14,999 nt of DNA, taken from positions 1-14,999 of the forward strand of contig JBIOXB010000146.1 of assembly GCA_044869275.1 (NCBI GenBank), in the 5' to 3' direction. A program made the position numbers and the translations under genes. The notes under the pieces were generated by a model. The model did not search any database, had not been told where the DNA came from, and worked only from the letters and a program-made list of their open reading frames with translations. The DNA comes from a bacterium. Lineage in GTDB: Bacteria > Zhuqueibacterota > Zhuqueibacteria > Zhuqueibacterales > Zhuqueibacteraceae. Shown here piece by piece: positions 2,367 through 14,820 of this stretch. Position 1 is the first letter of the stretch. Each line of letters starts with the position of its first letter.

Positions 2367-2708
2367 TCACCGCTTTTCTTCGATGCGGGCGGCCTTGCCC
2401 TTTAAATCGCGCAAATAGAAGAGGCGCGCGCGCCGCACCCGCCCGCGGCGCACGTGATCGATCTTGTCGATCATGGGCGAATGCAATGGGAAAATGCGTT
2501 CCACGCCGACGCCATCTGAAACTTTCCGCACCGTGAAGGTTTCGTTGATGCCCGCGCCGCGGCGTTGGATGACGACGCCTTCGAATGTTTGAATGCGTTC
2601 TTTATCGCCTTCCACGACTTTTTGATGCACCGCGACGGTGTCGCCGGGCGCGAAATCGGGATAGTCGCTGCGTAGCTGGGAGACGGAGATGGCATTGAGC
2701 TTGTTCAT
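2367..2708 (-). CDS. rplS: 50S ribosomal protein L19
   Basis: [29 protein letters not shown]...[23 protein letters not shown]...[16 protein letters not shown] overlap with trmD. Confidence 0.99.
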
Positions 2709-3424
2709 GGTCTATCCTCCTTGAAAGAATCAGATGTCGTTCGGTTTTCCAATAAGTCGGAGCGGCGCTCGCGGGTGCGCGCCGCGGCTGCGGCTTTGCG
2801 CCACGCTGCAATTTGCGCGTGATGGCCCGAGATCAGAACCTCCGGCACGCGATAGTCGCGAAAAACTTCCGGCCGCGTGTAATGCGGATAATCCAGGCCG
2901 CCGGCTTGAAATGAATCGCCCGAAGCGGAGTCGAGATTGCCGAGCACGCCGGGCAGCAGGCGAATGACCGCGTCCATCACCACCATCGCCGGCAACTCCC
3001 CCCCGGTCAGCACGTAATCGCCGATCGAAAGCTCCTCGCTGGCGAGGTGCTCGCGCACGCGTTCATCCACGCCTTTGTAATGGCCGCAAATGAAGATGGC
3101 GGCAGATTCTCGCGCCAGCGCGTTGGCTTTGCGCTGCGTGAAAGTTTCGCCCTGCGGCGAAGTGAGAATCACCCGCGCACCGGCGAGTTGAAATTCTTTT
3201 TGAATATGTTCGACGCATTTGAAAACGGGTTCGGGCTTGAGAATCATACCCGGCCCGCCGCCGAAAGGATAATCATCGATGTTGCGATGCTTGTCCGCAG
3301 TGTAATCGCGCAAATCGTGCACGAAAATTTCCACGAGTGCACGTTCGCGCGCGCGTTTGATGATGCTTTCGCTGAGCGGTCCGTCGAACAGTTTGGGAAA
3401 ACCTGTGACCACGTGAAACTGCAT
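2705..3424 (-). CDS. trmD: tRNA (guanosine(37)-N1)-methyltransferase
   Basis: [48 protein letters not shown] motifs and canonical synteny. Confidence 0.99.
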
Positions 3425-3445
3425 GGTCGCTTCTTATTTATCGGA

Positions 3446-4009
3446 TCATGAATTGTTTTTCACCGGAAAATCATCCAACAACCCGGGCAGGGGGGTGATG
3501 ACGACGTATTGCCGCGCCAGATTCACTTCCTGGATGATCGACGAAATCGCGGGAAGCAGCAATTCATTCCCGGCTTCGTCGTGCACGACCCACAAATCGT
3601 TCCCCGGATGCGCAATCACCTCCACGATCTTTCCCAGCGTCAGGCCGGCATTGGTGTGCACGGGCAAACCGATCAAATCAAAATGATAAAACTGATTCTC
3701 CGCCGTGGGCAAGCATTGCGTGCGCGTAATTTTGATTTCTGCCCCCCGGAAGCGCTGCACTTCATCGCAAGAATCGCATTCTGCAAACTTCAGCAGCACC
3801 AGATGCGGGCTGGGCACTTCCACGCGTTGCAGGCGAAACGTGCCGAGCGCTTCGCCGCGCAAAAAAAGGGCAACGCGATCGAGCTGATGAAAGCGCTGCG
3901 GGTCGTCCGTCGTCGGCTCTACTTTGACTGTGCCGCGCAGACCGTGGGGTTTAAGAATAACGCCGATGGTGACTTCCGGCTTGGGGATGTCGTCTGGTTC
4001 CACGCGCAC
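3446..4009 (-). CDS. rimM: 16S rRNA processing protein RimM
   Basis: IG.ILKPHGLRG motif, FYHFDLIGL.V and a PRC-barrel with GNDLWVV...LLLPAI. Lies between khpA and trmD. The GTG start is approximate. Confidence 0.96.
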   Translation of the reverse strand: MRVEPDDIPKPEVTIGVILKPHGLRGTVKVEPTTDDPQRFHQLDRVALFLRGEALGTFRLQRVEVPSPHLVLLKFAECDSCDEVQRFRGAEIKITRTQCLPTAENQFYHFDLIGLPVHTNAGLTLGKIVEVIAHPGNDLWVVHDEAGNELLLPAISSIIQEVNLARQYVVITPLPGLLDDFPVKNNS

Positions 4010-4030
4010 CGATCCGAAGGTTGAATGGCG

Positions 4031-4261
4031 CTATTCCAGAATCTCCAGAACCGCTCTCTTGCCCAATTTCGCCGAGGCCGCAGCCAGCAAGATGCGCAGC
4101 GATTTTGCCGTTTGTCCGTGCTTGCCGATGATCTTCCCCATGTCCCCCTTGCCCACGCGCAACTCGAAGACGATGGTGCGCTCACCGTCGAGCTCGTGCA
4201 CGACTACCTCGTCCGGCTTATCGACGATGTGCTGGACAATGAATTCGATGAATTGCTTCAC
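4031..4261 (-). CDS. khpA: KH-domain RNA-binding protein KhpA (YlqC/UPF0109)
   Basis: IVDKPDEV...DMGKIIGKHGQTAKSLR.LL with the KH GxxG loop. Strong AAGGAGGT SD and GTG start. Confidence 0.96.
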   Translation of the reverse strand: MKQFIEFIVQHIVDKPDEVVVHELDGERTIVFELRVGKGDMGKIIGKHGQTAKSLRILLAAASAKLGKRAVLEILE

Positions 4262-4625
4262 GCTTCAACCTCCTTTCGCGAGAGCCCGTTCTCGCCAAGG
4301 CCCTCGCCTTGAACCCGTATCCGGAGGCGGGGAATACCCCGGCCCAGAATCCGATGACCGGCTGAACATTCACGATGAGTTTCGACCAGGGGTTTGGTTT
4401 TCCGGCCGCCATTTCATCATTAGTCTCAGACGCCACTACCCCGTTCACCTCAACCCGCTACGGCGCACATTTTTTCACCGCGAATGCCAGAGATATGGAA
4501 GAAGATGAGGTCAAGCGTTCATTTGCACGGCGCGAGCGGTGCCATCACACCAGCAACGGGCGGTACGCCGCCCGCGGCCAGCCAGCCTGTGGTTGGATGG
4601 GCTCCGCGCAAAAGCGCTGGTGCTA

Positions 4626-5045
4626 TCAAGCCGAGGCGGCTGCAGCTTCCGCTGGGGCCGCTTTCTTTTTCTTGCGAGATCTTTTGCCTTGTTCGCGCAA
4701 AGCCTCCATGCGGCGCTGCCGCTCGCTTTGCGCCGCTTCCCATTTTTTGGTTTCTTCCTGCCTGCGCGCCTCATCATAGCCGCGCTTTTGCATATGCCAC
4801 TGCAGCAGCACGCCTTGCCGGCTCAGAATACTGCGCACGGTGTCGCTAGGCTGCGCGCCTTTGCTCAGCCAATAAAGCGCGCGCGCGGGATTGAGCAAAA
4901 CCGCCGCGGGCTCGGTGCGCGGATTGTACGTGCCGAGATTTTCCAAATACTCAGCGTCACGCGCCTTGCGCGAATCGATCGCCACGATGCGATAGGAGGG
5001 CTGTTTCTTTTTGCCCATCCGGCGAAGACGAAGACGAACTGCCAA
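4626..5045 (-). CDS. rpsP: 30S ribosomal protein S16 with charged C-terminal extension
   Basis: AVRLRLRRMGKKKQPSYRIVAIDSR..RD...LE.LGTYNP...WLSKGAQPSDTV. TTG start at 5045 with AAGGAGG 5 nt upstream. Confidence 0.98.
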   Translation of the reverse strand: MAVRLRLRRMGKKKQPSYRIVAIDSRKARDAEYLENLGTYNPRTEPAAVLLNPARALYWLSKGAQPSDTVRSILSRQGVLLQWHMQKRGYDEARRQEETKKWEAAQSERQRRMEALREQGKRSRKKKKAAPAEAAAASA

Positions 5046-5088
5046 TGCAACCTCCTTGGAAAATAAAATAGGGATGATATTGAAATTT

Positions 5089-6393
5089 TTAAAACGGCAA
5101 TCTCTTGTTGCGTCCAACCTGTTTCATCATTTTGCGCATCATCTCAAATTGCTTGATGAGCCGGTTCACTTCCTGCACGCTCGTGCCGCTGCCTTGGGCG
5201 ATGCGCAAGCGCCGGGTGCCGTTGAGAATCTGCGGCTTCTGCCGCTCTATGCGCGTCATGGACTGGATGATGGCTTCGGTGCGCACCAGCGCGCCTTCAT
5301 CGACTTCCGCATCTTTAGGCAGTTTGGCGCCCACGCCCGGCAGCATGCCCACCAACTGATTGAGCGGGCCCATCTTCTTGACTTGCTGCAATTGTTCGAG
5401 AAAATCTTCCAGCGTAAACTCGGATTTGCGCAGCTTCTCGGCCAGCTCGCGGCTTTTTTCCTGATCGACGGCCTGCTGCGCTTTTTCCACGAGTGTGACC
5501 ACGTCGCCCATGCCCAAAATGCGTGAAGCGATGCGATCGGGGTGAAATTTTTCCAGCGCGTCGAGCTTTTCGCCAGTGCCGATGAATTTGATGGGCTTGC
5601 CAATCACGGCTTTGATCGAAAGCGCCGCGCCGCCGCGCGCATCGCCGTCCATTTTGGTCAACACCACGCCGGTCAAATCCAGGCGACTTTGAAACGATTG
5701 CGCGGTGTTCACGGCATCCTGGCCGGTCATGCCATCGGCCACAAAAAGAATCTCGTGCGGCTTGAGGGTCTTCTTGATCGCGGCCAGTTCTTCCATCAAC
5801 TCCTCGTTGAGGTGCAAACGGCCGGCGGTATCGAGAATGGCGACGTCCAGCATTTTTTGCCGCGCCGCGTTGATCGCCGCTTTGCACACGTCGATCGGCG
5901 TGGAACCGGTTTTGGAAAAGAACTCGGCGCTGACTTGCTGGGATACAACCCGCAATTGCTCCACGGCCGCGGGTCTCTGTAAATCTGCTGCGACCAGGAG
6001 CGGCCGCCGGCCCTTGGCCTTGAGATGTTTCGCGAGTTTGCCGCAAAAAGTGGTCTTGCCCGTCCCTTGCAATCCCACCACCATGATGATCGTCGGCGGC
6101 AGATTGGCCTCGCGCAACGGCGTCTCATTGCCGCCGAGCAAACGCGCCAATTCGTCGTGCACGATTTTGATCATCTGCTGCGCCGGCGTAATGCTCTTGG
6201 CTACTTCCGCGCCCACGGCTTTTTTTTCAACCGCTTCAACAAATTCTTTGGTGACGTTGAGATGGACATCGGCCTCGAGCAAAACCCGCCGCACTTCCCG
6301 CAAGGTTTCAGAAATATTTTCCGGCGTGAGCTTGCCGTGTCCTTTCAGCTTGCGAAAAATTTCCTCGAAACGGCCGGAGAGTTGTTGGAACAT
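5089..6393 (-). CDS. ffh: signal recognition particle protein Ffh
   Basis: LLEADV, P-loop GLQGTGKTT, DTAGR, TKMDGDARGG, RILGMGD and a Met-rich M domain ending RIAQGSG. Confidence 0.99.
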   Translation of the reverse strand: MFQQLSGRFEEIFRKLKGHGKLTPENISETLREVRRVLLEADVHLNVTKEFVEAVEKKAVGAEVAKSITPAQQMIKIVHDELARLLGGNETPLREANLPPTIIMVVGLQGTGKTTFCGKLAKHLKAKGRRPLLVAADLQRPAAVEQLRVVSQQVSAEFFSKTGSTPIDVCKAAINAARQKMLDVAILDTAGRLHLNEELMEELAAIKKTLKPHEILFVADGMTGQDAVNTAQSFQSRLDLTGVVLTKMDGDARGGAALSIKAVIGKPIKFIGTGEKLDALEKFHPDRIASRILGMGDVVTLVEKAQQAVDQEKSRELAEKLRKSEFTLEDFLEQLQQVKKMGPLNQLVGMLPGVGAKLPKDAEVDEGALVRTEAIIQSMTRIERQKPQILNGTRRLRIAQGSGTSVQEVNRLIKQFEMMRKMMKQVGRNKRLPF

Positions 6394-6651: not shown

Positions 6652-8184
6652 TCAGGAAGCAGCTTCTGTCCAGTCCCGGCAAAGTTGCAGCAACAAGCGT
6701 ACACCCCAGCCGCTGCTGCCCTTGGGTATGAGCGCGTTTCCTTTCTGCGGCGCGGCCACCCCGGCAATGTCCAGGTGCGCCCATTTGAATCCTTTGACGA
6801 ATTCGGATAAAAACGCAGCGGCCTTGCTGGCCCCGGCTCCGGTTTTTTGCGCCGAAACGTTGCGAATGTCGGCAATGTCGCTTTCCAGATGTTTGCGAAA
6901 TTCTGGAAACAGAGGCAACTGCCAGACACGTTCGCCCGTGGCCGCAGCGGCGCGCTGAATGCGCCCGGCAAGCGATTGATCGTTGCTGAAAAGGCCCGCC
7001 GCGCTCTCGCCCAGCACGTAAAAAATTGTTCCGGTTAAAGTCGCGATATCGACAATCGCCGCAGGCTGAAAGCGCGCGGCATAAACCAGCGCGTCCGCCA
7101 GTATCAGCCGGCCTTCGGCGTCGGTGTCGGCAACTTCGATCGTCGTGCCATTCGCCGCGCGCACAACGTCGCCCGGGCGTTGCGCCGTGCCGCTGGGCAT
7201 ATTCTCCACCAGAGGCATCAATCCCACCACGTGCAGCGGAGTTTCAAGTTGCGCCAGCGCGCAGATGGCCGACAACACCACGGCAGCGCCCGACATGTCG
7301 GTTTTCATTTCTTCCATCGACTCGGCCGGCTTGAGCGAGAGGCCGCCGCTGTCGAACGTCACGCCTTTGCCCACCAAGACCAGCGTCTCGGCGCCGGCCC
7401 GCGGCTGGTTTTCCACAACCACGAATCGCGGAGCTTGCGCGCTGCCCTGAGCCACGCCCAGCAACGCCCCCATGCCCAGCGCGAGCATTTCTTTCTCATC
7501 CAGAACCCGGCAGAAAAGATGGGTTGATTTTGCTTTCTCTTGCGCAAGGGTCGCGAAAATCTCCGGGGTGAGATCGTTGGGCGGCAGGTTTTGCAGATCA
7601 CGTGCAAAGCAGGTCCATTCGCCCGCAATGGCGCCCACGCGCGCGCCAGTTTCGAATTTGGCTGCAGCTTCCGCCTGATCACAGAGCAGCGTCAGCGCAG
7701 ACAGGCGCGTGTCTTTTGGTTCTGGTTGAGATTTGTATCGATTGAATTGATAATCGGCCAGCACCGCGGCCTCGACGATCAGTTGCGCCGCTGCGCGCTC
7801 GCCGCCGGGCTGGCTCAAAGACCGGCCCAAAGGTACGCACAATTCCGTCACACCCACTTTGCGCGCGGCGGACACGGCCGAAGCGATGACGTGCTGCAAG
7901 TGCGGCCCGTCTCCGAGATGTTGCTTTTCCTCTTCTGGAAGATACATGCCAGCAAGCAACAGCCTTTGTGCGGGCAGATGAGGCGGGTAAAGCCAGGCGG
8001 TTTCACCGAATTTTCCCGTGAAATCGCCGCGGCGAATGAATGTAGAAACCACCTCGAAAGAGCGCGACGCAGGTGGCACATTCACGATGATGGCTTCACG
8101 CGAGGAAGGGCGCGAGGAGCACAGCACCAACAAAGCGGGTGTAGCTTCGGCTTCGACGGGGCCGAATTTGACAAGCGTTTTCAT
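6652..8184 (-). CDS. pepA: cytosol (leucyl) aminopeptidase, peptidase family M17
   Basis: VGKGVTFDSGGLSLK, MKTDMSGAA, ENMPSG, DTDAEGRLILAD, DIATLTG and WAHLDIAG motifs. AGGAGG SD upstream. Confidence 0.97.
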   Translation of the reverse strand: MKTLVKFGPVEAEATPALLVLCSSRPSSREAIIVNVPPASRSFEVVSTFIRRGDFTGKFGETAWLYPPHLPAQRLLLAGMYLPEEEKQHLGDGPHLQHVIASAVSAARKVGVTELCVPLGRSLSQPGGERAAAQLIVEAAVLADYQFNRYKSQPEPKDTRLSALTLLCDQAEAAAKFETGARVGAIAGEWTCFARDLQNLPPNDLTPEIFATLAQEKAKSTHLFCRVLDEKEMLALGMGALLGVAQGSAQAPRFVVVENQPRAGAETLVLVGKGVTFDSGGLSLKPAESMEEMKTDMSGAAVVLSAICALAQLETPLHVVGLMPLVENMPSGTAQRPGDVVRAANGTTIEVADTDAEGRLILADALVYAARFQPAAIVDIATLTGTIFYVLGESAAGLFSNDQSLAGRIQRAAAATGERVWQLPLFPEFRKHLESDIADIRNVSAQKTGAGASKAAAFLSEFVKGFKWAHLDIAGVAAPQKGNALIPKGSSGWGVRLLLQLCRDWTEAAS

Positions 8185-8321: not shown

Positions 8322-8385
8322 GTCTCACTCAACAGTTTTTTTCGTGAGCGTTCGTCTGCTGGAAAGTTCACCAGTAAAAAACTAG

Positions 8386-8413
8386 TTGACTTTTGGAATG
8401 AGAATCATATTTT
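8386..8413 (+). promoter_or_regulatory. putative promoter for the TrmB-family regulator
   Basis: TTGACT-N16-TATTTT, ending 28 nt before ATG 8442. Confidence 0.5.
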
Positions 8414-8437
8414 AGTAGCTGTAACAACAACCACTAA
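8412..8437. promoter_or_regulatory. imperfect palindromic operator TTAGTAGCTGT-AACA-ACAACCACTAA
   Basis: 11-bp arms with 9/11 complementary positions, covering the predicted transcription start region of the TrmB-family gene. Confidence 0.6.
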
Positions 8438-8441
8438 TTTC

Positions 8442-9305
8442 ATGGAACCGATCGTCGAATTGCTGCAGAAGCTTGGCTTCGGAGAGTATGAAGCACGGGC
8501 TTACGTGGCCTTGCTCCAAAATCAACCGTTGAACGGCTATGAGCTGGCGAAAGCCTCCGGGTTGCCCCGCGCCAATGTTTACAGCGTGCTGCAAAAACTC
8601 GAAGATCGCGGCGCCGTGGCGCGTTTCGAGACTTCTTCAGGAACGCGTTATGCAGCGGTGCCGCCCAAGGAATTGGCCCAAAAGCTGGGCAGCCGTTTTC
8701 ATGAGACGTTGGAAGCCACGCAGCGTTCCTTGGAAAAAATCAGCAGCGCGGTGGCGCACGATTATGTTTGGAATACCAAAGGCTACGCCACGATGCTGGA
8801 AGAAGCCCGGGCCGTTATTGACGCGGCGCAAGAAAATCTGCTGGTGGCATTGTGGCATCATGAAGCGCTGCGCCTGGCCGAGCCTTTACGTCGTGCTGAA
8901 ACGCGCGGCGTTGCGATCACGACATTGTGTTTGGAAGCCTGCCCGCAGCCCTGCGCAGGTTGCCGCGGCCGCGTCTATCGGTATCGTGTCGCATTGGATG
9001 AGTCCGCGCGCTGGCTGGTGTTGATTGCCAACGCGGCGGAAGTTTTTGCGGCTGAGATCGATGCCAGCGAAGCAGCACTGGCGATACGCACGCGGCAACA
9101 ACTGCTGGTGGATTTGGCCGCGTGGTACATTCGTCACAGCATTGCGCTGGCGGCATTGGTCAGCGATCTCGGCGGCAATCTGGAAAACCTGCTCGCGCCT
9201 GAGACGCGTGCCGTGTTGGCCTCGATCAGCATGCAGAAACAAGGCATAGGCTGGCTGGAGCATATGCGCAGCCTGTTGGGTCATCAACGTGATCTTGCCG
9301 AATAG
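8442..9305 (+). CDS. TrmB-family (winged HTH) transcriptional regulator with Cys cluster Cx3Cx3Cx2C, 287 aa
   Basis: N-terminal LQKLGFGEYEARAYVALL...GYELAKASGLPRANVYSVL.KL..RG is a typical TrmB HTH, followed by a coiled linker and an effector domain with CLEACPQPCAGC. Start moved to ATG 8442 because the TrmB domain begins there. Confidence 0.93.
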   Translation: MEPIVELLQKLGFGEYEARAYVALLQNQPLNGYELAKASGLPRANVYSVLQKLEDRGAVARFETSSGTRYAAVPPKELAQKLGSRFHETLEATQRSLEKISSAVAHDYVWNTKGYATMLEEARAVIDAAQENLLVALWHHEALRLAEPLRRAETRGVAITTLCLEACPQPCAGCRGRVYRYRVALDESARWLVLIANAAEVFAAEIDASEAALAIRTRQQLLVDLAAWYIRHSIALAALVSDLGGNLENLLAPETRAVLASISMQKQGIGWLEHMRSLLGHQRDLAE

Positions 9306-9389
9306 TTGCTCTGCTCAAGCTAATCCGGCATAAAGAAAAGCTGTCGCTGGGGAAGAATGAACGAAGAAATTTTGTTTTAGAAATGAGCA

Positions 9390-9422
9390 TGCGGGCCGCA
9401 ATTGTGTCCGCACCTTTTCTTC
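9390..9422 (+). terminator. hairpin with pyrimidine tail between the regulator and the exported-protein gene (possible weak terminator or attenuator)
   Basis: TGCGGGC/GTCCGCA stem (one G-U) followed by CCTTTTCTT. Confidence 0.3.
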
Positions 9423-9451
9423 ATTCCTAATCATTAATCAAGGAGATTGTT

Positions 9452-9859
9452 ATGCGGAGGTACTCACTTCTTCTGATCGCTGCCGTGCTGGCTCTCGCCA
9501 GCATGGCCACGATTCTGTCGGCGCAGGATAAAGCCGCGGCGAAGTCCGAGACCATCACCGGCACGTTGGTCGATCTCAAATGCTATGCCGCGGGTGGATT
9601 CCTCACCAATGATCATGGCGGCATGAAGGGCTGTGGCGCCGCCTGCGCCAAAGGCGGCAATCCCGTAGGTTTGGTGGAGGCCAACAAAAAGGTCCATTTC
9701 CTGGGCGTGGCTTCCCCGGACTATGCCGACTGGGTCGGCATGGAACTGCGTTTGACCGGCAAGCACAATGCGACTGCCAACATCTTTCTGCCCGACAAAG
9801 TGGAAGCTAATGTAGACGGCAAATGGGTGGAAAAGAAAGCAGCCAAAGGCATGATGTAA
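9452..9859 (+). CDS. exported hypothetical protein with G.lvD.kCY...H...C...C..gG.P.gl motif (putative metal-binding beta-rich domain)
   Basis: AAGGAG SD. Signal peptide MRRYSLLLIAAVLALASMATILSA-QD. Candidate ligands Cys44, His55, Met58, Cys61, Cys65. Followed by a terminator. Confidence 0.85.
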   Translation: MRRYSLLLIAAVLALASMATILSAQDKAAAKSETITGTLVDLKCYAAGGFLTNDHGGMKGCGAACAKGGNPVGLVEANKKVHFLGVASPDYADWVGMELRLTGKHNATANIFLPDKVEANVDGKWVEKKAAKGMM

Positions 9860-9890
9860 GCGCTGGAAGGCGGCAGATTTATATCAGCAG

Positions 9891-9917
9891 AAAAGGCGGC
9901 AAAGATGCCGCCTTTTT
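9891..9917 (+). terminator. intrinsic (potentially bidirectional) terminator
   Basis: AAAAGGCGGCA-aaga-TGCCGCCTTTT perfect 11-bp stem with A/T tails on both sides. Confidence 0.85.
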
Positions 9918-10077: not shown

Positions 10078-13000
10078 ATGGCCAAAAAGCAATCAACACA
10101 GAATTCCAGCGCGGCAAGGGTTCGGGCCAGACCGGGTCAGTTGACCGGCAAGAAGGCCAAAGCGAGCACACCGCAGAAGTCCAAGCACTCTGCTGCTCGT
10201 CCGGGTCCGCAACCCGTGGCCGCCAATAAACCTGTCGCGAGCCGCTCCTCCGCGCCTCTGGATATTCCCGTGGTCGGCATCGGCGCTTCTGCCGGCGGGC
10301 TGGAAGCGTTCACGCAGTTGTTGGGATACTTGCCGACGGATACCAACTTGGCGTTCGTGCTGGTGCAACACCTCGATCCCAAGCACGAGAGCATCCTGAC
10401 GGAGCTGCTTGCCCGCGCGACCAAGATGGCGGTGAGCCAGGTGACGGAAGGCATGCCGGTGGAGTCCAACCACATCTACGTCATACCCCCCAACACCAAC
10501 CTGGCGATCGTGCATGGCGTCTTGCAGCTCATGCCGCGCACCGAGACGCGCGGACAACACATGCCCATCGATTATTTTTTGCGCTCGCTGGCCGAGGATC
10601 AGGGCAGCCAAGCGATCGGCGTGATTCTCTCGGGGACCGCTTCCGACGGCGCGCTGGGCCTGGAGGCGATCAAGGCGGAAGGCGGCATTACGTTTGTGCA
10701 GGATGAGCAGTCGGCCAAATACACGGGCATGCCGCGCAGTGCCATCGCCGCCAGCCGTGTCGATTTCATCCTGCCGCCGGAAGGCATTGCCAAGGAGCTG
10801 GCGCGCATCGGCCGCCACCCGTACTTGGTGCGGGTGCATGCCGCCGAAGCGGAGGAGCCCCTGCCCAAGAGCGAAGGGGAGGTTTTCAGCAAGATTTTCG
10901 CTTTGCTGCGCAGCGCCACGGGCGTGGATTTTACGCATTACAAATATAACACCGTCAAACGCCGCATTTTGCGGCGCATGGCGCTGCACAAGCTCGAAAT
11001 GCTGGGGGATTACTTCAAATACCTCCGCGGCAACCGCGCCGAAGCGGAAGCCTTGCAGCAGGAGATTCTCATCAAGGTAACCGGTTTTTTCCGCGATCCC
11101 GGAACCTTTGAAGCCTTGCAGCGCGAAACTTTTCCGGCACTCCTGGCGAATCGCCCTCCCGATGAGCCCATCCGCATTTGGGTGCCGGGATGCGCCACCG
11201 GCGAGGAAGTCTATTCCCTGGCGATGTGCCTGCTGGAATTTTTGGCAGAGCGGAAAACCACGGTCCCGATTCAGATTTTCGCGACGGACATCAGCGAGGC
11301 GGCCTTGGAGAAAGCCCGCACCGGCCTGTACATCGAAAACATCGCCATCGACGTTTCGCCGGAACGGTTGCGCCGCTTCTTCGTCAAGATGGACGGCAGG
11401 TACCAGATCAGCAAATCGATCCGCGAGATGTGCATTTTCGCCCGGCAAAATGTCTTCACAGATCCGCCGTTCTCGCGGCTGGACCTCATTAGCTGCCGCA
11501 ATGTGCTGATCTACCTCGACGCCATGCTGCAAAAGAAAGTCATTCCGATTTTTCATTATGCCCTGAAGCCTGCGGGCATTCTCATGCTGGGTGTTTCCGA
11601 GACCATTGGCACGTTTGCGGATTTGTTTGCGCTGGTGGACAAGAAACATAAAGTCTATGCCAAAAAATCGACCTCGGCGCGGCCAAGCTTTGACTTTGCC
11701 GGCGGTGAGCATCGCATGGAAAAAACGGAGAAGAGCACAGCCTCGGGCCGCCGTGCCGAAGAAAGTTGGGGCGGCTTTGACGTGCAGAAAGAAGCGGATC
11801 GCATTGTGTTGTCACGTTATGCGCCTGCCGGAGTCTTGATCAATGCTGACATGGACATCCTGCAATTCCGCGGCCACACCAGCGCGTATCTCGAGCCGGT
11901 GCCCGGCAAAGCAAGCTTGAACTTGCTGAAGATGGCGCGTGAAGGCTTGCTGCTGGAGCTGCGCACCGCGATTCACAAGGCCCAAAAAGCGAAAGCGACG
12001 GTCAGAAAGGAAGGCATTCAGGCCAAACACAACGGCCATTTCAAAGCAGTGAATATCGAGGTTATTCCGATTACCGGCGCTGCCCCGCGCGAGCGCTACT
12101 ATTTAATCCTGTTCGAAGAGGCCAAGCCGCGCGCAGCCGCGGAGATCAAGAGCAAACGCGCCAAAGCCATCCGCCCCAAGCAAGAGCAGGAGCAGCACCG
12201 GCGCAATGCGCAATTGCAACGGGAATTGGCGGCCACGCGGGAACATTTGCAGTCCATCATCGAGGAGCAGGAAGCTTCCAACGAAGAGCTCAGATCCGCC
12301 AACGAAGAGATCCTGTCGAGCAACGAGGAATTGCAGAGCATCAACGAGGAGATGGAAACCGCCAAAGAAGAGCTGCAATCCGCCAACGAAGAGCTGACCA
12401 CAGTCAACGAGGAGCTGCAAAATCGCAACCTTGAATTGAACCGGCTCAACAACGACCTGGGCAATCTGTTCAGCAGTGTCAACCTGCCGATCGTGATGCT
12501 GGGCAGCGATCTGCGCATCCGGCGGCTGACGCCGATGGCGGAAAAAGCGTTGCACCTGATTCCGGCGGACGTGGGCCGCCCGATCACTGACGTCAAGCTC
12601 TACATCGAGGTGCCGAATTTGGAAGCCTCCATTCTGGAGGTCATTGATATGGTGAGGACGAAAGAATGCGAGGTGCAAGACCGCGAGGGCCGTTGGTATT
12701 CGCTGCGCCTCCGGCCCTACCGCACCACGGACCACAAGATCGACGGTGCGGTGCTGGTTTTTGTCGATATCGAGGCGTTCAAGCGCAATCTCAAGCAGCT
12801 CGAAGAATCGCGGGATTACGCCCGCACGATCGTGGAGACGATTCGGGAGCCCCTCGCCGTTCTCAACGGCGGGTTGCGCGTGCAAACCGCGAATCGCTCT
12901 TTCTATCAAACTTTTCAGGTCACGCCCGAGGAAACCGAGAACAGTTTCATTTATGAGATCGGAAACGGGCAGTGGAACATTCCAGCGTTGCGCAAGCTAT

Positions 13001-14820
13001 TGGAAGAAATCATCCCCCAGAACGGCCAGTTTGAGAACTTCGAGGTCGAGCACGAATTTCCCGTCATTGGGCGCAAGATCATGCTGCTCAATGCCCGGCG
13101 CATTCGGCAAGCGGCGTCCGGCCAGGAGTTGATCCTGCTGGCGATGGAGGACGTCACCGCGCCCAAGCAAATGGCTCAGGCGCTGGCAAAGTCGCGCGAT
13201 TTCCATCTGAAGCTGTTCGAAGAATTTCCGGCTTTGATTTGGCGCTCTGGTGTTGATACCAAATGCAATTACTTCAACCAAAGCTGGCTGCGCTTCACCG
13301 GCAGAACGCTAGAGCAGGAGCGCGGCGAGGGCTGGGTCGAGGGCGTTCATCCGGAGGATCTGAAGCGCTGCGTCGCAACCTACCTGGATTCCTTCCACAG
13401 CCGCCGGCCTTTTGAAATGGAATATCGCCTGCGGCGCTTTGACGGGGAGTATCGCTGGATCGTTGATTTTGGCCGGCCGTACCACGATCTCGAGGAAAAC
13501 TTCGCCGGCTTCCTTGGCGCCTGTTACGACATCACCGAGCGCCAAGACGCAGAAGCACGCATGCGCCGGCACAGCCTGCATTTGCAAATCTTGAATGAGA
13601 TTTCCTCAGGGTTGGCGGCGACCAAGCTCGAGCTGCAGACGATTTTGCAGACCGTCGTGCTCAAAGCGGCGGAATTGATCGGGGACGCCTGCGCCATCAA
13701 CTTATTGTCGCCGGACCAACAGTGGCTCATTCCCGCTGCTTATCATCATCGCAAGCCTGAAGCGTTGGCGCTCATGCGCGAGGTGCTCTCGGGCCAGCGC
13801 CACCACGTCAGCGAGGGCTTGGCCGGCCGTGTGCTGCCGGCGGGCGAAACCATGTTCATGCCCGTGCTGCCGCCGGAGCAGGCGCGCGCCGCGATTAAAC
13901 CCGAGCATCGCACCTATCTCGAGCGCGTCGGCATCAGCAGCGTGCTGATCGTGCCACTGCGCCTGGAAGGCGGCTTAATTGGAACGCTCGGGGTGACGCG
14001 CGACCACGCCGGACAGCCCTACGATGACGATGATCGCATCCTAATGGAAGAGCTGGCCGGCCAAATTGCTTTGGCGATCGAAAACTCCCGTTTGTATGAA
14101 ACCGTGCAACGAGAACTTGCCGAGCGCAAACACGCCGAGGAAGAATTGCGGCGCTCGCGCGAGCAGTTGCGCGACCATTTCGTTCATTTGCAGGCCGCCA
14201 TCGAGCAGGAACGGGCGCGGATTGCGCGGGAGCTGCACGATGAATTGGGCCAGGCGTTGACTGCCGTGAAAATGGACGTCGCCTGGGTGGCCGGCCAAAC
14301 TCCTCCACAGCTCGAGACCATACACCAGAAAACGCTTGCGATCTCACGAAGCCTCGACACTACCATGAAGAGCGTGCAGCGCATTTCCGCGGAGTTGCGG
14401 CCCAACTTATTGGATGACCTCGGCCTTTCCGCCGCCCTGGAATGGCAGGCCGAGGAATTTTGCCGGCGAGCCGGAATCGAGTATGAACTGCTCAGTTCGC
14501 CGGAAGACATTGTGGTTGACCGCGAGCGCTCCACCGTGGTTTTCCGTATCTTCCAGGAAGCGTTGACCAATATTGCACGCCACGCCGAGGCCACACAAAT
14601 CAAAATCAGTTTGACCAAGGCCGAACGCAAGCTCATACTGAAAATCAGGGACAATGGCAAAGGCATTACCTTGGAACAGATTTCCAATCCGCACTCATTT
14701 GGATTGATTGGCATGCGCGAGCGGGTGTATCCTTGGGCCGGCAAGATTATGGTCAAGGGCAGGCAGGGCAAGGGCACCGTAACTCTCGTCAGCATTCCGC
14801 TCGACCCGTCGATTTTGTAG
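10078..14820 (+). CDS. CheB methylesterase-CheR methyltransferase-coiled coil-PAS/PAS/PAS-GAF-HisKA_3-HATPase fusion sensor kinase, 1580 aa
   Basis: CheB: GASAGG (S71), VQH (H98), SGTASDG (D190). CheR: VTGFFRD, WVPGCATGEEVYS, FATDIS, DLISCRNVLIY. EELQS heptads. PAS: FNQSWLRFTG...W...VHPED...DGEYRW. GAF: VPL...LIGTL...LAGQIALAIENSRLY. H-box RIARELHDELGQ (H1387), N-box FQEALTNIARHA, DNGKG, FGLIGMRER. GGAGA SD. Confidence 0.96.
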   Translation: MAKKQSTQNSSAARVRARPGQLTGKKAKASTPQKSKHSAARPGPQPVAANKPVASRSSAPLDIPVVGIGASAGGLEAFTQLLGYLPTDTNLAFVLVQHLDPKHESILTELLARATKMAVSQVTEGMPVESNHIYVIPPNTNLAIVHGVLQLMPRTETRGQHMPIDYFLRSLAEDQGSQAIGVILSGTASDGALGLEAIKAEGGITFVQDEQSAKYTGMPRSAIAASRVDFILPPEGIAKELARIGRHPYLVRVHAAEAEEPLPKSEGEVFSKIFALLRSATGVDFTHYKYNTVKRRILRRMALHKLEMLGDYFKYLRGNRAEAEALQQEILIKVTGFFRDPGTFEALQRETFPALLANRPPDEPIRIWVPGCATGEEVYSLAMCLLEFLAERKTTVPIQIFATDISEAALEKARTGLYIENIAIDVSPERLRRFFVKMDGRYQISKSIREMCIFARQNVFTDPPFSRLDLISCRNVLIYLDAMLQKKVIPIFHYALKPAGILMLGVSETIGTFADLFALVDKKHKVYAKKSTSARPSFDFAGGEHRMEKTEKSTASGRRAEESWGGFDVQKEADRIVLSRYAPAGVLINADMDILQFRGHTSAYLEPVPGKASLNLLKMAREGLLLELRTAIHKAQKAKATVRKEGIQAKHNGHFKAVNIEVIPITGAAPRERYYLILFEEAKPRAAAEIKSKRAKAIRPKQEQEQHRRNAQLQRELAATREHLQSIIEEQEASNEELRSANEEILSSNEELQSINEEMETAKEELQSANEELTTVNEELQNRNLELNRLNNDLGNLFSSVNLPIVMLGSDLRIRRLTPMAEKALHLIPADVGRPITDVKLYIEVPNLEASILEVIDMVRTKECEVQDREGRWYSLRLRPYRTTDHKIDGAVLVFVDIEAFKRNLKQLEESRDYARTIVETIREPLAVLNGGLRVQTANRSFYQTFQVTPEETENSFIYEIGNGQWNIPALRKLLEEIIPQNGQFENFEVEHEFPVIGRKIMLLNARRIRQAASGQELILLAMEDVTAPKQMAQALAKSRDFHLKLFEEFPALIWRSGVDTKCNYFNQSWLRFTGRTLEQERGEGWVEGVHPEDLKRCVATYLDSFHSRRPFEMEYRLRRFDGEYRWIVDFGRPYHDLEENFAGFLGACYDITERQDAEARMRRHSLHLQILNEISSGLAATKLELQTILQTVVLKAAELIGDACAINLLSPDQQWLIPAAYHHRKPEALALMREVLSGQRHHVSEGLAGRVLPAGETMFMPVLPPEQARAAIKPEHRTYLERVGISSVLIVPLRLEGGLIGTLGVTRDHAGQPYDDDDRILMEELAGQIALAIENSRLYETVQRELAERKHAEEELRRSREQLRDHFVHLQAAIEQERARIARELHDELGQALTAVKMDVAWVAGQTPPQLETIHQKTLAISRSLDTTMKSVQRISAELRPNLLDDLGLSAALEWQAEEFCRRAGIEYELLSSPEDIVVDRERSTVVFRIFQEALTNIARHAEATQIKISLTKAERKLILKIRDNGKGITLEQISNPHSFGLIGMRERVYPWAGKIMVKGRQGKGTVTLVSIPLDPSIL
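12253..12420 (+). repeat. eight degenerate 21-nt (heptad) tandem repeats encoding [ST]xNEE[LIM]x
   Basis: SIIEEQE/ASNEELR/SANEEIL/SSNEELQ/SINEEME/TAKEELQ/SANEELT/TVNEELQ read directly from the sequence. Confidence 0.85.

Follow-up and report, generated by a model that had tools for sequence, protein, structure and literature searches.

A bacterial TrmB-family regulator with a four-cysteine loop, its conserved operator and a linked exported protein

What might a TrmB-type regulator respond to when no sugar gene lies beside it? The question is raised by a 14,999-nt stretch of bacterial DNA (the window; contig JBIOXB010000146.1 of assembly GCA_044869275.1, a genome 94% complete at ~6.66-6.7 Mb), in which two co-oriented genes (8442-9305 and 9452-9859) encode such a regulator and a small, probably exported protein with conserved cysteines. 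A sequence-only reading of the window had proposed an autoregulated two-gene unit, in which a cofactor-bearing repressor controls an exported metal or cluster carrier. Here, we place the regulator in an undescribed four-cysteine (Cys4) TrmB subfamily, in which the operator is fixed and the redox cargo varies.

A TrmB scaffold with a four-cysteine loop

The N-terminus of the regulator is a TrmB winged helix (aa 8-76; PF01978, 79.8 bits vs a cut-off of 25.6), and its only cysteines are residues 163, 167, 171 and 174, the first 162 residues being Cys-free; it is thus the TrmB-type protein with four clustered cysteines that had been described. In the structural model (mean pLDDT 83), a long helix and a PLD-like second domain follow, and the chain ends in helices (220-286). 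Its fold matches are TrmBL2, TrmB and PLD-like domains (Foldseek to TrmBL2 over 256 columns; also 2f5t, Nuc and NucT), of which TrmBL2 and TrmB are the best (HMM E 2e-16; Foldseek E 7e-15). Sugar-binding TrmB has a C-terminal beta-barrel subdomain with Asn305-Glu326 sugar ligands, as set out in a section of PMC4158304. This subdomain is absent from the regulator, as judged from profile and model, because the match to PF11495 is fragmentary and below cut-off (profile positions 1-57 of 233) and the model ends in helices.

TrmBL2 (PDB 5bpd, 5box, 5bqt) and TrmB (3qph, 2f5t) of Thermococcales likewise combine a winged helix, a long helix and a PLD-like domain, and TrmBL2 also does without the sugar subdomain. 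The regulator differs from both in its four-cysteine loop and its bacterial sigma-70-type promoter, and it scores far below the family cut-offs, both for sugar-sensing TrmB/TrmBL1 (NF040851, NF047390 and NF047392; 50.7-54 bits vs 500-650) and for TrmBL2 (NF041141; 38.3 bits vs 530). A TrmB-family thiol switch is already known in archaea; OxsR of Haloferax volcanii is a thiol-based oxidative-stress regulator, a role similar to the one proposed below, and is described in parts of PMC9426492 as a single winged-helix domain with one interface cysteine (C24) and a CG-rich motif, whereas the regulator here has two domains, with cysteines only at 163-174 in the second. The regulator therefore belongs to the TrmB family, and not to its sugar-sensing TrmB, TrmBL2 or OxsR groups. 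Clustered cysteines serve as metal or redox switches in CopY, ZAS anti-sigma factors and NsrR/FNR; the regulator's cysteines, a predicted switch, are clustered in the same way, but the scaffold and the cysteine spacing differ.

Homologues of the regulator made up 671 of 7998 scored candidates, and 120 of them were listed. Among these listed matches, the Cx3Cx3Cx2C motif is exact in 118/119 homologues, and the remaining one has one extra residue. The motif is also present at 58 of the 72 genome loci of the family; the 14 loci without it comprise three truncated or frameshifted genes, one from Deinococcota and ten from Actinomycetota (one truncated). In a FastTree phylogeny of 68 rows (17 truncated, frameshifted or redundant rows were left out), a single branch with support of 99 splits 56 Cys4 rows from 12 Cys-less rows, and in the outgroup the loop aligns with a shorter, Cys-free segment. 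Cys4 regulators occur in Chloroflexota (most loci), KSB1, Vulcanimicrobiota, Gemmatimonadota and Pseudomonadota. In the window's own phylum, Cys-less relatives adjoin ABC permeases and a GH57 enzyme, or an aldehyde dehydrogenase. Because such relatives sit in ABC-permease/GH57 operons, sugar-linked bacterial TrmBs exist, and the Cys4 clade is separate from them. The cysteine cluster first noticed in a single protein is thus, by comparison, the feature dividing this clade from its sugar-linked relatives. Nor do Cys4 regulators sit consistently beside sugar ABC transporters, their cargo being mainly reductase and FolE genes.

A Cys-less sister group at loci L203-L211, from the window's class, has a related palindrome scoring 0-20 bits on the operator matrix introduced below. 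With several members upstream of an aldehyde dehydrogenase, this group is probably another undescribed regulon.

One operator ahead of varied genes

The upstream regions of the family carry a TAGTAGTTG-N6-CAACTACTA palindrome directly after the -10 box. We built an operator matrix from the 52 of 60 upstream regions that have a site with at most five mismatches, leaving the window out of training. The window's site (8413-8436), in which 7/9 arm positions are symmetric, scores 28.4 bits, the best of 6.66 million genome positions, and the next best reaches 13.3; 20 column-shuffled matrices peak at 13.4-24.9 bits in this genome. The sites of loci L092-L094, also outside training, score 30.8-33.5 bits. 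An operator of at least 18 bits is found at 55 of the 58 Cys4 loci, the set that supplied the 52 training sites, and two of the three others begin at the edge of a contig. For Cys-less regulators, the best score is 14.6 bits in Deinococcota and at most 4.7 bits across the ten loci from Actinomycetota. A strict form of the pattern is present in 31/36 genomes with the regulator vs 2/33 without, while a reversed control pattern is common in both sets. Six one-mismatch matches were treated as chance, four of them (14-19 bits) lying in or at coding regions and two scoring below 10 bits.

The promoter with an overlapping palindrome, as claimed from the sequence, is present, and 8413-8436 overlaps its -10 hexamer by one base. 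Of two candidates for that palindrome, this one is the family operator, whereas a short palindrome at 8380-8387 is absent from L092-L094 and was ruled out as an operator. A promoter-like site alone is at chance level (2 found vs 1.2 expected). The arrangement of -35, -10 (here 16 nt apart) and palindrome is nonetheless seen again in L014 and L092-L094, and 46/55 family promoters have a TTG-type hexamer no more than 45 nt ahead of the operator, most commonly at 27-28 nt (27 nt in the window). A clear ribosome-binding site is not discernible at the regulator's start codon. In L014 (genome G001), the distance from operator to start codon is ~140 nt (5372-5537), vs 1-5 nt in the other copies of the gene pair.

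An operator in this position would cover the transcription start, and hence repression is implied. Autoregulation through the regulator's own operator, as had been proposed, is supported by comparison, the family palindrome upstream of this gene being the best site in its genome. The operator also follows the regulon rather than the regulator gene, since it is repeated ahead of an FAD reductase in 9 loci, comes first in the operon at 5 loci with an internal trmB, and lies between folE/reductase and DinB genes, distant from the regulator, in genomes G044 and G056. At 24 bp, it is unlike the TM and TGM motifs that PMC4158304 tabulates. In L040 (2453-5982), the regulator and a divergent operon, which includes a succinate-dehydrogenase-type Fe-S subunit, have the operator between them.

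We counted neighbours in two ways, with 62 loci clustered whole and with 57 operator-headed units set by a simple automatic chaining rule. The 62 loci hold NAD(P)H/FAD ferredoxin-reductase-like genes in 28 (some Rieske-fused), FolE in 25, with its CEHH motif intact, and a RibD_C-like reductase in 9. Within the 57 units, an FAD or RibD_C-like reductase occurs in 25, FolE in 21, a cupredoxin in 6, a di-heme MauG-like protein in 6, two small His-rich membrane proteins in 5-6, a 137-aa membrane protein (presumably DoxX-like) in 5 and an exported helical protein in 4. Rarer cargo includes DUF488, DUF2231 (2 loci), DinB, transaldolase, YjeF_N, a chlorite-dismutase-family protein, a luciferase-like monooxygenase and one divergent catalase. 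Among the genes identified inside these units, none is arsenic-methyltransferase-like, NO-detoxifying or copper-exporting. Taken together, the units point best to oxidant or thiol stress, and next to copper; FAD reductase and FolE are the usual cargo, which favours oxidant stress over metal export or NO. In Cupriavidus, a Zn-type FolE gives protection against H2O2, paraquat and Cd (reported in part of PMC10882993), and excerpts of PMC13259868 give general background on pterins.

Three of these sets of genes recur. Loci L016, L017, L039, L041, L051 and L063 hold, under the operator, a conserved trio: the cupredoxin, with a lipoprotein-like N-terminus, and the two small His-rich membrane proteins, which Pfam does not match. 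In L021, L023, L025 and L055, the first gene after the regulator encodes an exported, His-rich helical protein of one or two repeats, which neither Pfam nor NCBIfam matches. The di-heme MauG/MbnH-like protein, also without Pfam match, is found in L036, L044-L046, L073 and L088, often behind the 137-aa membrane protein.

The gene pair and its exported protein

The regulator and the exported protein are found together at six loci: the window, G001 and L091-L094. The L091 contig holds only the 3' end of the regulator, and both genes are also covered by a DNA contig from another study. In its tree, each of the two proteins falls into a single clade, with one and the same basal member in both cases; the copies sit in four different upstream contexts, their proteins diverge by ~30%, and their spacers go down to ~60 nt. 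Judged from these congruent trees and contexts, the pair is one inherited cassette, a single event retained and moved as a block. The two families therefore do co-occur outside the window. They mostly occur apart, however, with the cassette confined to one clade; the pair accounts for 1/72 regulator loci and 4/33 metagenome loci of the exported-protein family, and among 167 genomes of the phylum, the Cys4 regulator occurs in 4, a match to the exported-protein family in 25 and the pair in 2. The proposed two-gene unit thus stands as a block inherited together, but not as a family-wide pairing.

No second operator was found in the host genome, and the host's FAD-reductase orthologue (62%) and folE have none, so the exported-protein gene appears to be the regulator's only visible target there. 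The orthologue (G000 C99 13508-14680) lies upstream of genes resembling a metal ABC transporter. In one metatranscriptome, assembled as contigs, a 98%-identical piece covers 9124-9355 and more distant pieces fall on the second gene; none of the matches listed bridges the spacer.

Table 1. Features of the cassette and its flanks in the window
Feature	Position	Strand	Remarks
Divergent M17 leucyl aminopeptidase (pepA)	6652-8184		Divergent from the cassette
-35 hexamer TTGACT	8386..8391	+	Promoter scan and family layout
-10 hexamer TATTTT	8408..8413	+	Last base common to the operator; same layout in L092-L094
Operator palindrome	8413..8436	.	24 bp; TAGTAGTTG-N6-CAACTACTA with two mismatches here
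Regulator gene, 287 aa	8442..9305	+	PF01978; winged helix, long helix, PLD-like alpha/beta domain, C-terminal helices
Cx3Cx3Cx2C loop (C163, C167, C171, C174)	8928..8963	+	After a strand of the second domain
Spacer, 146 nt	9306..9451	+	Between regulator and exported-protein gene
Ribosome-binding site AAGGAG	9440-9445	+	Ahead of the exported-protein gene
Exported OB-fold protein gene, 135 aa	9452..9859	+	Predicted Sec-type signal aa 1-24; helical insertion with C44, H55, C61 and C65
Intrinsic terminator hairpin	9891..9917	+	4-nt loop, A run before, T run after
CheB/CheR-PAS-GAF kinase	10078-14820		

The layout of the cassette is given in Table 1. Its flanking genes, the aminopeptidase and the kinase, were ruled out as cassette members, as the flanks differ in L092-L094, and they agree with the earlier remark that no sugar transport or catabolic gene is adjacent; no sugar gene adjoins the regulator within the window. 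Neither the promoter scan nor the operator search found a site in the spacer. The strong closing terminator that had been reported is there (a perfect 11-bp stem at 9891-9916, -18.9 kcal/mol, with T runs next), and a similar hairpin ends all six cassettes; a consensus terminator scanner reported the 9891-9917 hairpin on the minus strand only. Elsewhere in the window, the minus strand at 2367-6393 holds an ordinary gene cluster, presumably of the ffh-rpsP-KH-rimM-trmD-rplS type, to go by the translations.

The exported protein has a signal-like N-terminus, no Pfam or NCBIfam match, and all five residues (C44, H55, M58, C61 and C65) to which attention had been drawn. Its family is large, 462 representatives at 50% clustering matching its profile. 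Of 124 aligned rows, 122-123 retain C44, C61 and C65, and 119 retain H55; the C..H..CxxxC pattern (the His preceding the C61-x3-C65 motif) is present in 118, and exactly three cysteines follow residue 25 in 108. M58 is kept in only 41 rows, which does not support it as a ligand. The suggestion of a cluster carrier also fared poorly; an exported Fe-S protein is unlikely because a Tat-like signal is nearly absent, being found in 0/39 close and 1/124 wider homologues.

The model of the exported protein (mean pLDDT 92.6) is an OB beta barrel, with C44, H55, C61 and C65 in a helical insertion after the first strand. Its best structural Z is 6.8, within the range of a common fold, with no match at Z of at least 8; YgiW and CcmE are matched at Z 4.7-4.9 (1nnx: Z 4.9, rmsd 2.5, 64 aligned). 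No relative of solved structure was found by sequence (best E 0.024) or by Foldseek (none at E <0.001). DUF5818 (PF19135) gives weak matches to 31/124 members (best E 7e-5) and none to the window's protein, and makes up 21% of one Atlas cluster. Neither CusF (PF11604; E 0.05) nor the SCO1-SenC profile matched the window's protein or the family members, the CusF search covering all 124. YgiW/BOF, CusF and CcmE are likewise small exported OB barrels, but the protein here adds to these, and to DUF5818, the Cys3-His helical insertion.

In the class of one Gemmatimonadetes genome, the gene abuts a co-oriented ~450-aa protein in 15/30 loci, with a thioredoxin-like domain in 4/5 of those scanned and CxxC in 13/15. 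L115, L117, L118 and L166 likewise have thioredoxin-like or CcdA neighbours; other neighbours are CusF-family proteins (L115 and L173), CtaA (L173) and OsmC (L119-L121), and many other loci of the family have unrelated neighbours. From this analysis, the exported protein is most likely a periplasmic Cys3-His thiol/metal redox protein that would be kept reduced by thioredoxin-like partners. It would most plausibly work like ScoI with TlpA, yet it is not a Sco protein. ScoI/SenC proteins, as portrayed in sections of PMC6669012, are also exported, with CxxxC plus His and a thioredoxin-like partner comparable to the thioredoxin-like genes beside this family. The protein here, in contrast, has an OB rather than a thioredoxin fold, a third conserved cysteine, a cleavable-type signal instead of a membrane anchor, and no consistent link to oxidase genes.

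In two genomes of one genus (L086 3380-4625 and L009), a gene of the exported-protein family lies directly downstream of a DtxR/MntR-type (iron-dependent) repressor. The host genome also has a 268-aa distant paralogue of the domain behind a ferric-reductase-like/Rieske gene (G000 C70 30445-32282; L189). Similar paralogues occur across the genomes of the family, and in L234 the domain is fused to a ferric-reductase/Rieske protein. A weak search of 7998 candidates for longer, fused versions of the protein gave none; the L234 fusion was seen directly.

What the regulator may sense

Comparison of sequences shows the domain layout, the loss of the sugar subdomain, the conservation of the cysteines, the operator with its position, its link to the Cys4 clade and the genes that follow it, and the block inheritance of the pair. 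The explanation we favour, with about an even chance of being right, is autorepression released by oxidation of a metal-thiolate site. The regulator would act as a repressor bound to the palindrome at its own transcription start, with the four loop cysteines holding a metal-thiolate site (Zn or Fe-S). Oxidants (O2, peroxide or other thiol-reactive species) would damage this site, the regulator would release the DNA, and the downstream, probably exported cysteine protein would be switched on. Here, we infer DNA binding, repression, cofactor, signal and co-transcription alike.

Several observations weigh against this explanation. The six cassette copies share one origin and thus count as one event, G014 and G016 carry both genes unlinked, and the host's own FAD-reductase orthologue and folE lack the operator. 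The best shuffled matrix reached 24.9 bits; the strict operator pattern misses both the window's site (two mismatches) and the operator of G001, and part of its matches are intragenic chance matches. A spacer hairpin (9390-9412, -11.3 kcal/mol), followed by a pyrimidine run, is terminator-like and could attenuate read-through, although it is not conserved in the other cassettes. The cargo genes are a mixed set, drawn mostly from related Chloroflexota, and their counts are therefore not independent; the cupredoxin and the His-rich membrane proteins among them point to copper. Two Cys4 loci (L049 and L061) have sugar-type binding proteins nearby, and glycogen-debranching and FGGY-kinase genes are chained behind units in L064 and L047.

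A bolder version of release by oxidation is possible, if on the doubtful side. The sugar pocket of the TrmB scaffold would have been replaced by an Fe-S cluster on all four cysteines, giving bacteria a redox sensor of a new class, whose operator is fixed while its oxidant-defence cargo can be exchanged. A pterin-based antioxidant module would be part of this cargo, as would, in the window, the protein that founds an uncharacterised periplasmic Cys3-His OB-fold family, an electron or copper partner of TlpA-like and ferric-reductase/Rieske proteins. A complex prediction for the regulator homodimer with 4Fe-4S scored 0.20 (mark 0.42) and was counted for neither side.

The main rival, though somewhat unlikely in our view, is a copper or soft-metal sensor, in which the four cysteines would hold Zn in the DNA-bound state until Cu(I) displaced it and induced an exported Cu-binding protein. 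CopY works in this way, Cu(I) displacing the Zn held by its cysteines when bound to DNA. A copper signal would suit the cupredoxin (with its His/Cys/His/Met residues) and the two His-rich membrane proteins of 5-6 operator-headed loci, the DUF2231 genes of 2, the CusF-family and CtaA neighbours (L115 and L173), the iron-dependent repressor of L086, and an Atlas structural neighbour cluster rich in heavy-metal-binding domains, whose aligned part is under the naming bar. The exported protein also has CxxxC plus His like ScoI (in the portion of PMC6669012 dealing with it). However, the operator-headed units yielded no P-type ATPase, HMA chaperone or multicopper oxidase, the P-type ATPases of L016 and L018 lying outside them; the commonest cargo, FAD reductase and FolE, is not copper export, and M58 is not conserved.

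We consider it unlikely that the cysteines hold only a structural Zn while the PLD-like domain senses a small metabolite (pterin, flavin or pyridine nucleotide), as other TrmBs sense sugars. TrmB second domains do bind ligands (PMC4158304, in part), FolE with the RibD_C-like and NAD(P)H/FAD reductases forms a coherent pterin/redox-cofactor set, and the Cys-less sister group has its related palindrome beside an aldehyde dehydrogenase. Many regulons, including the window's, nevertheless have no metabolic enzyme at all, and one cysteine loop and operator for such different cargoes fits a general stress signal better.

There is less reason still to believe that the exported-protein gene is a passenger, brought in by one old insertion and either served by its own promoter or cut off by the spacer hairpin. 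The single origin of the cassette would fit, as would the terminator-like hairpin and the frequency with which the exported-protein family occurs without the regulator (29/33 metagenome loci, and 30/30 loci of another class). The pair, operator and terminator have nevertheless been kept together across ~30% divergence, four upstream contexts and spacers as short as ~60 nt, the spacer has no promoter-like site, and without another operator in the genome the regulator would otherwise control only itself.

A sensor of NO (an NsrR-like Fe-S protein) or of arsenic (As(III) bound by the cysteines) seems very improbable. folE has been found in an ars operon, where it confers arsenic resistance (from parts of PMC9144182), and Crp/Fnr-type genes lie near 4 loci, but the regulator loci gave no match to an ArsM-like query (a methyltransferase so labelled), the one ArsP permease lies outside its unit and has its own ArsR-family gene, and globin, hybrid-cluster and NO-reductase families are absent among the neighbours scanned. 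An ordinary sugar-responsive TrmB with incidental cysteines, suggested by automatic homologue names ('sugar-specific') and by the sugar-type binding proteins near 2 Cys4 loci, is already largely refuted and scarcely credible, as the sugar-binding subdomain (residues as given in the TrmB section of PMC4158304) is absent, NCBIfam scores of 38-54 face cut-offs of 500-650, and the relatives in ABC-permease/GH57 operons have neither the loop nor the operator.

In the literature searched, with subscription papers and supplements outside its coverage, we found no description of the Cys4 TrmB subfamily, its operator or the exported-protein family. Databases label the Cys4 regulators 'sugar-specific', whereas an operator, targets and candidate sensing residues can now be assigned to them. 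Chloroflexota and KSB1 have few studied regulators, and the subfamily may offer a handle on how they cope with oxidants. The subfamily also suggests a regulated role for pterin synthesis in oxidant defence, and the cassette provides the first functional leads for a widespread, unannotated family of exported OB-fold proteins.

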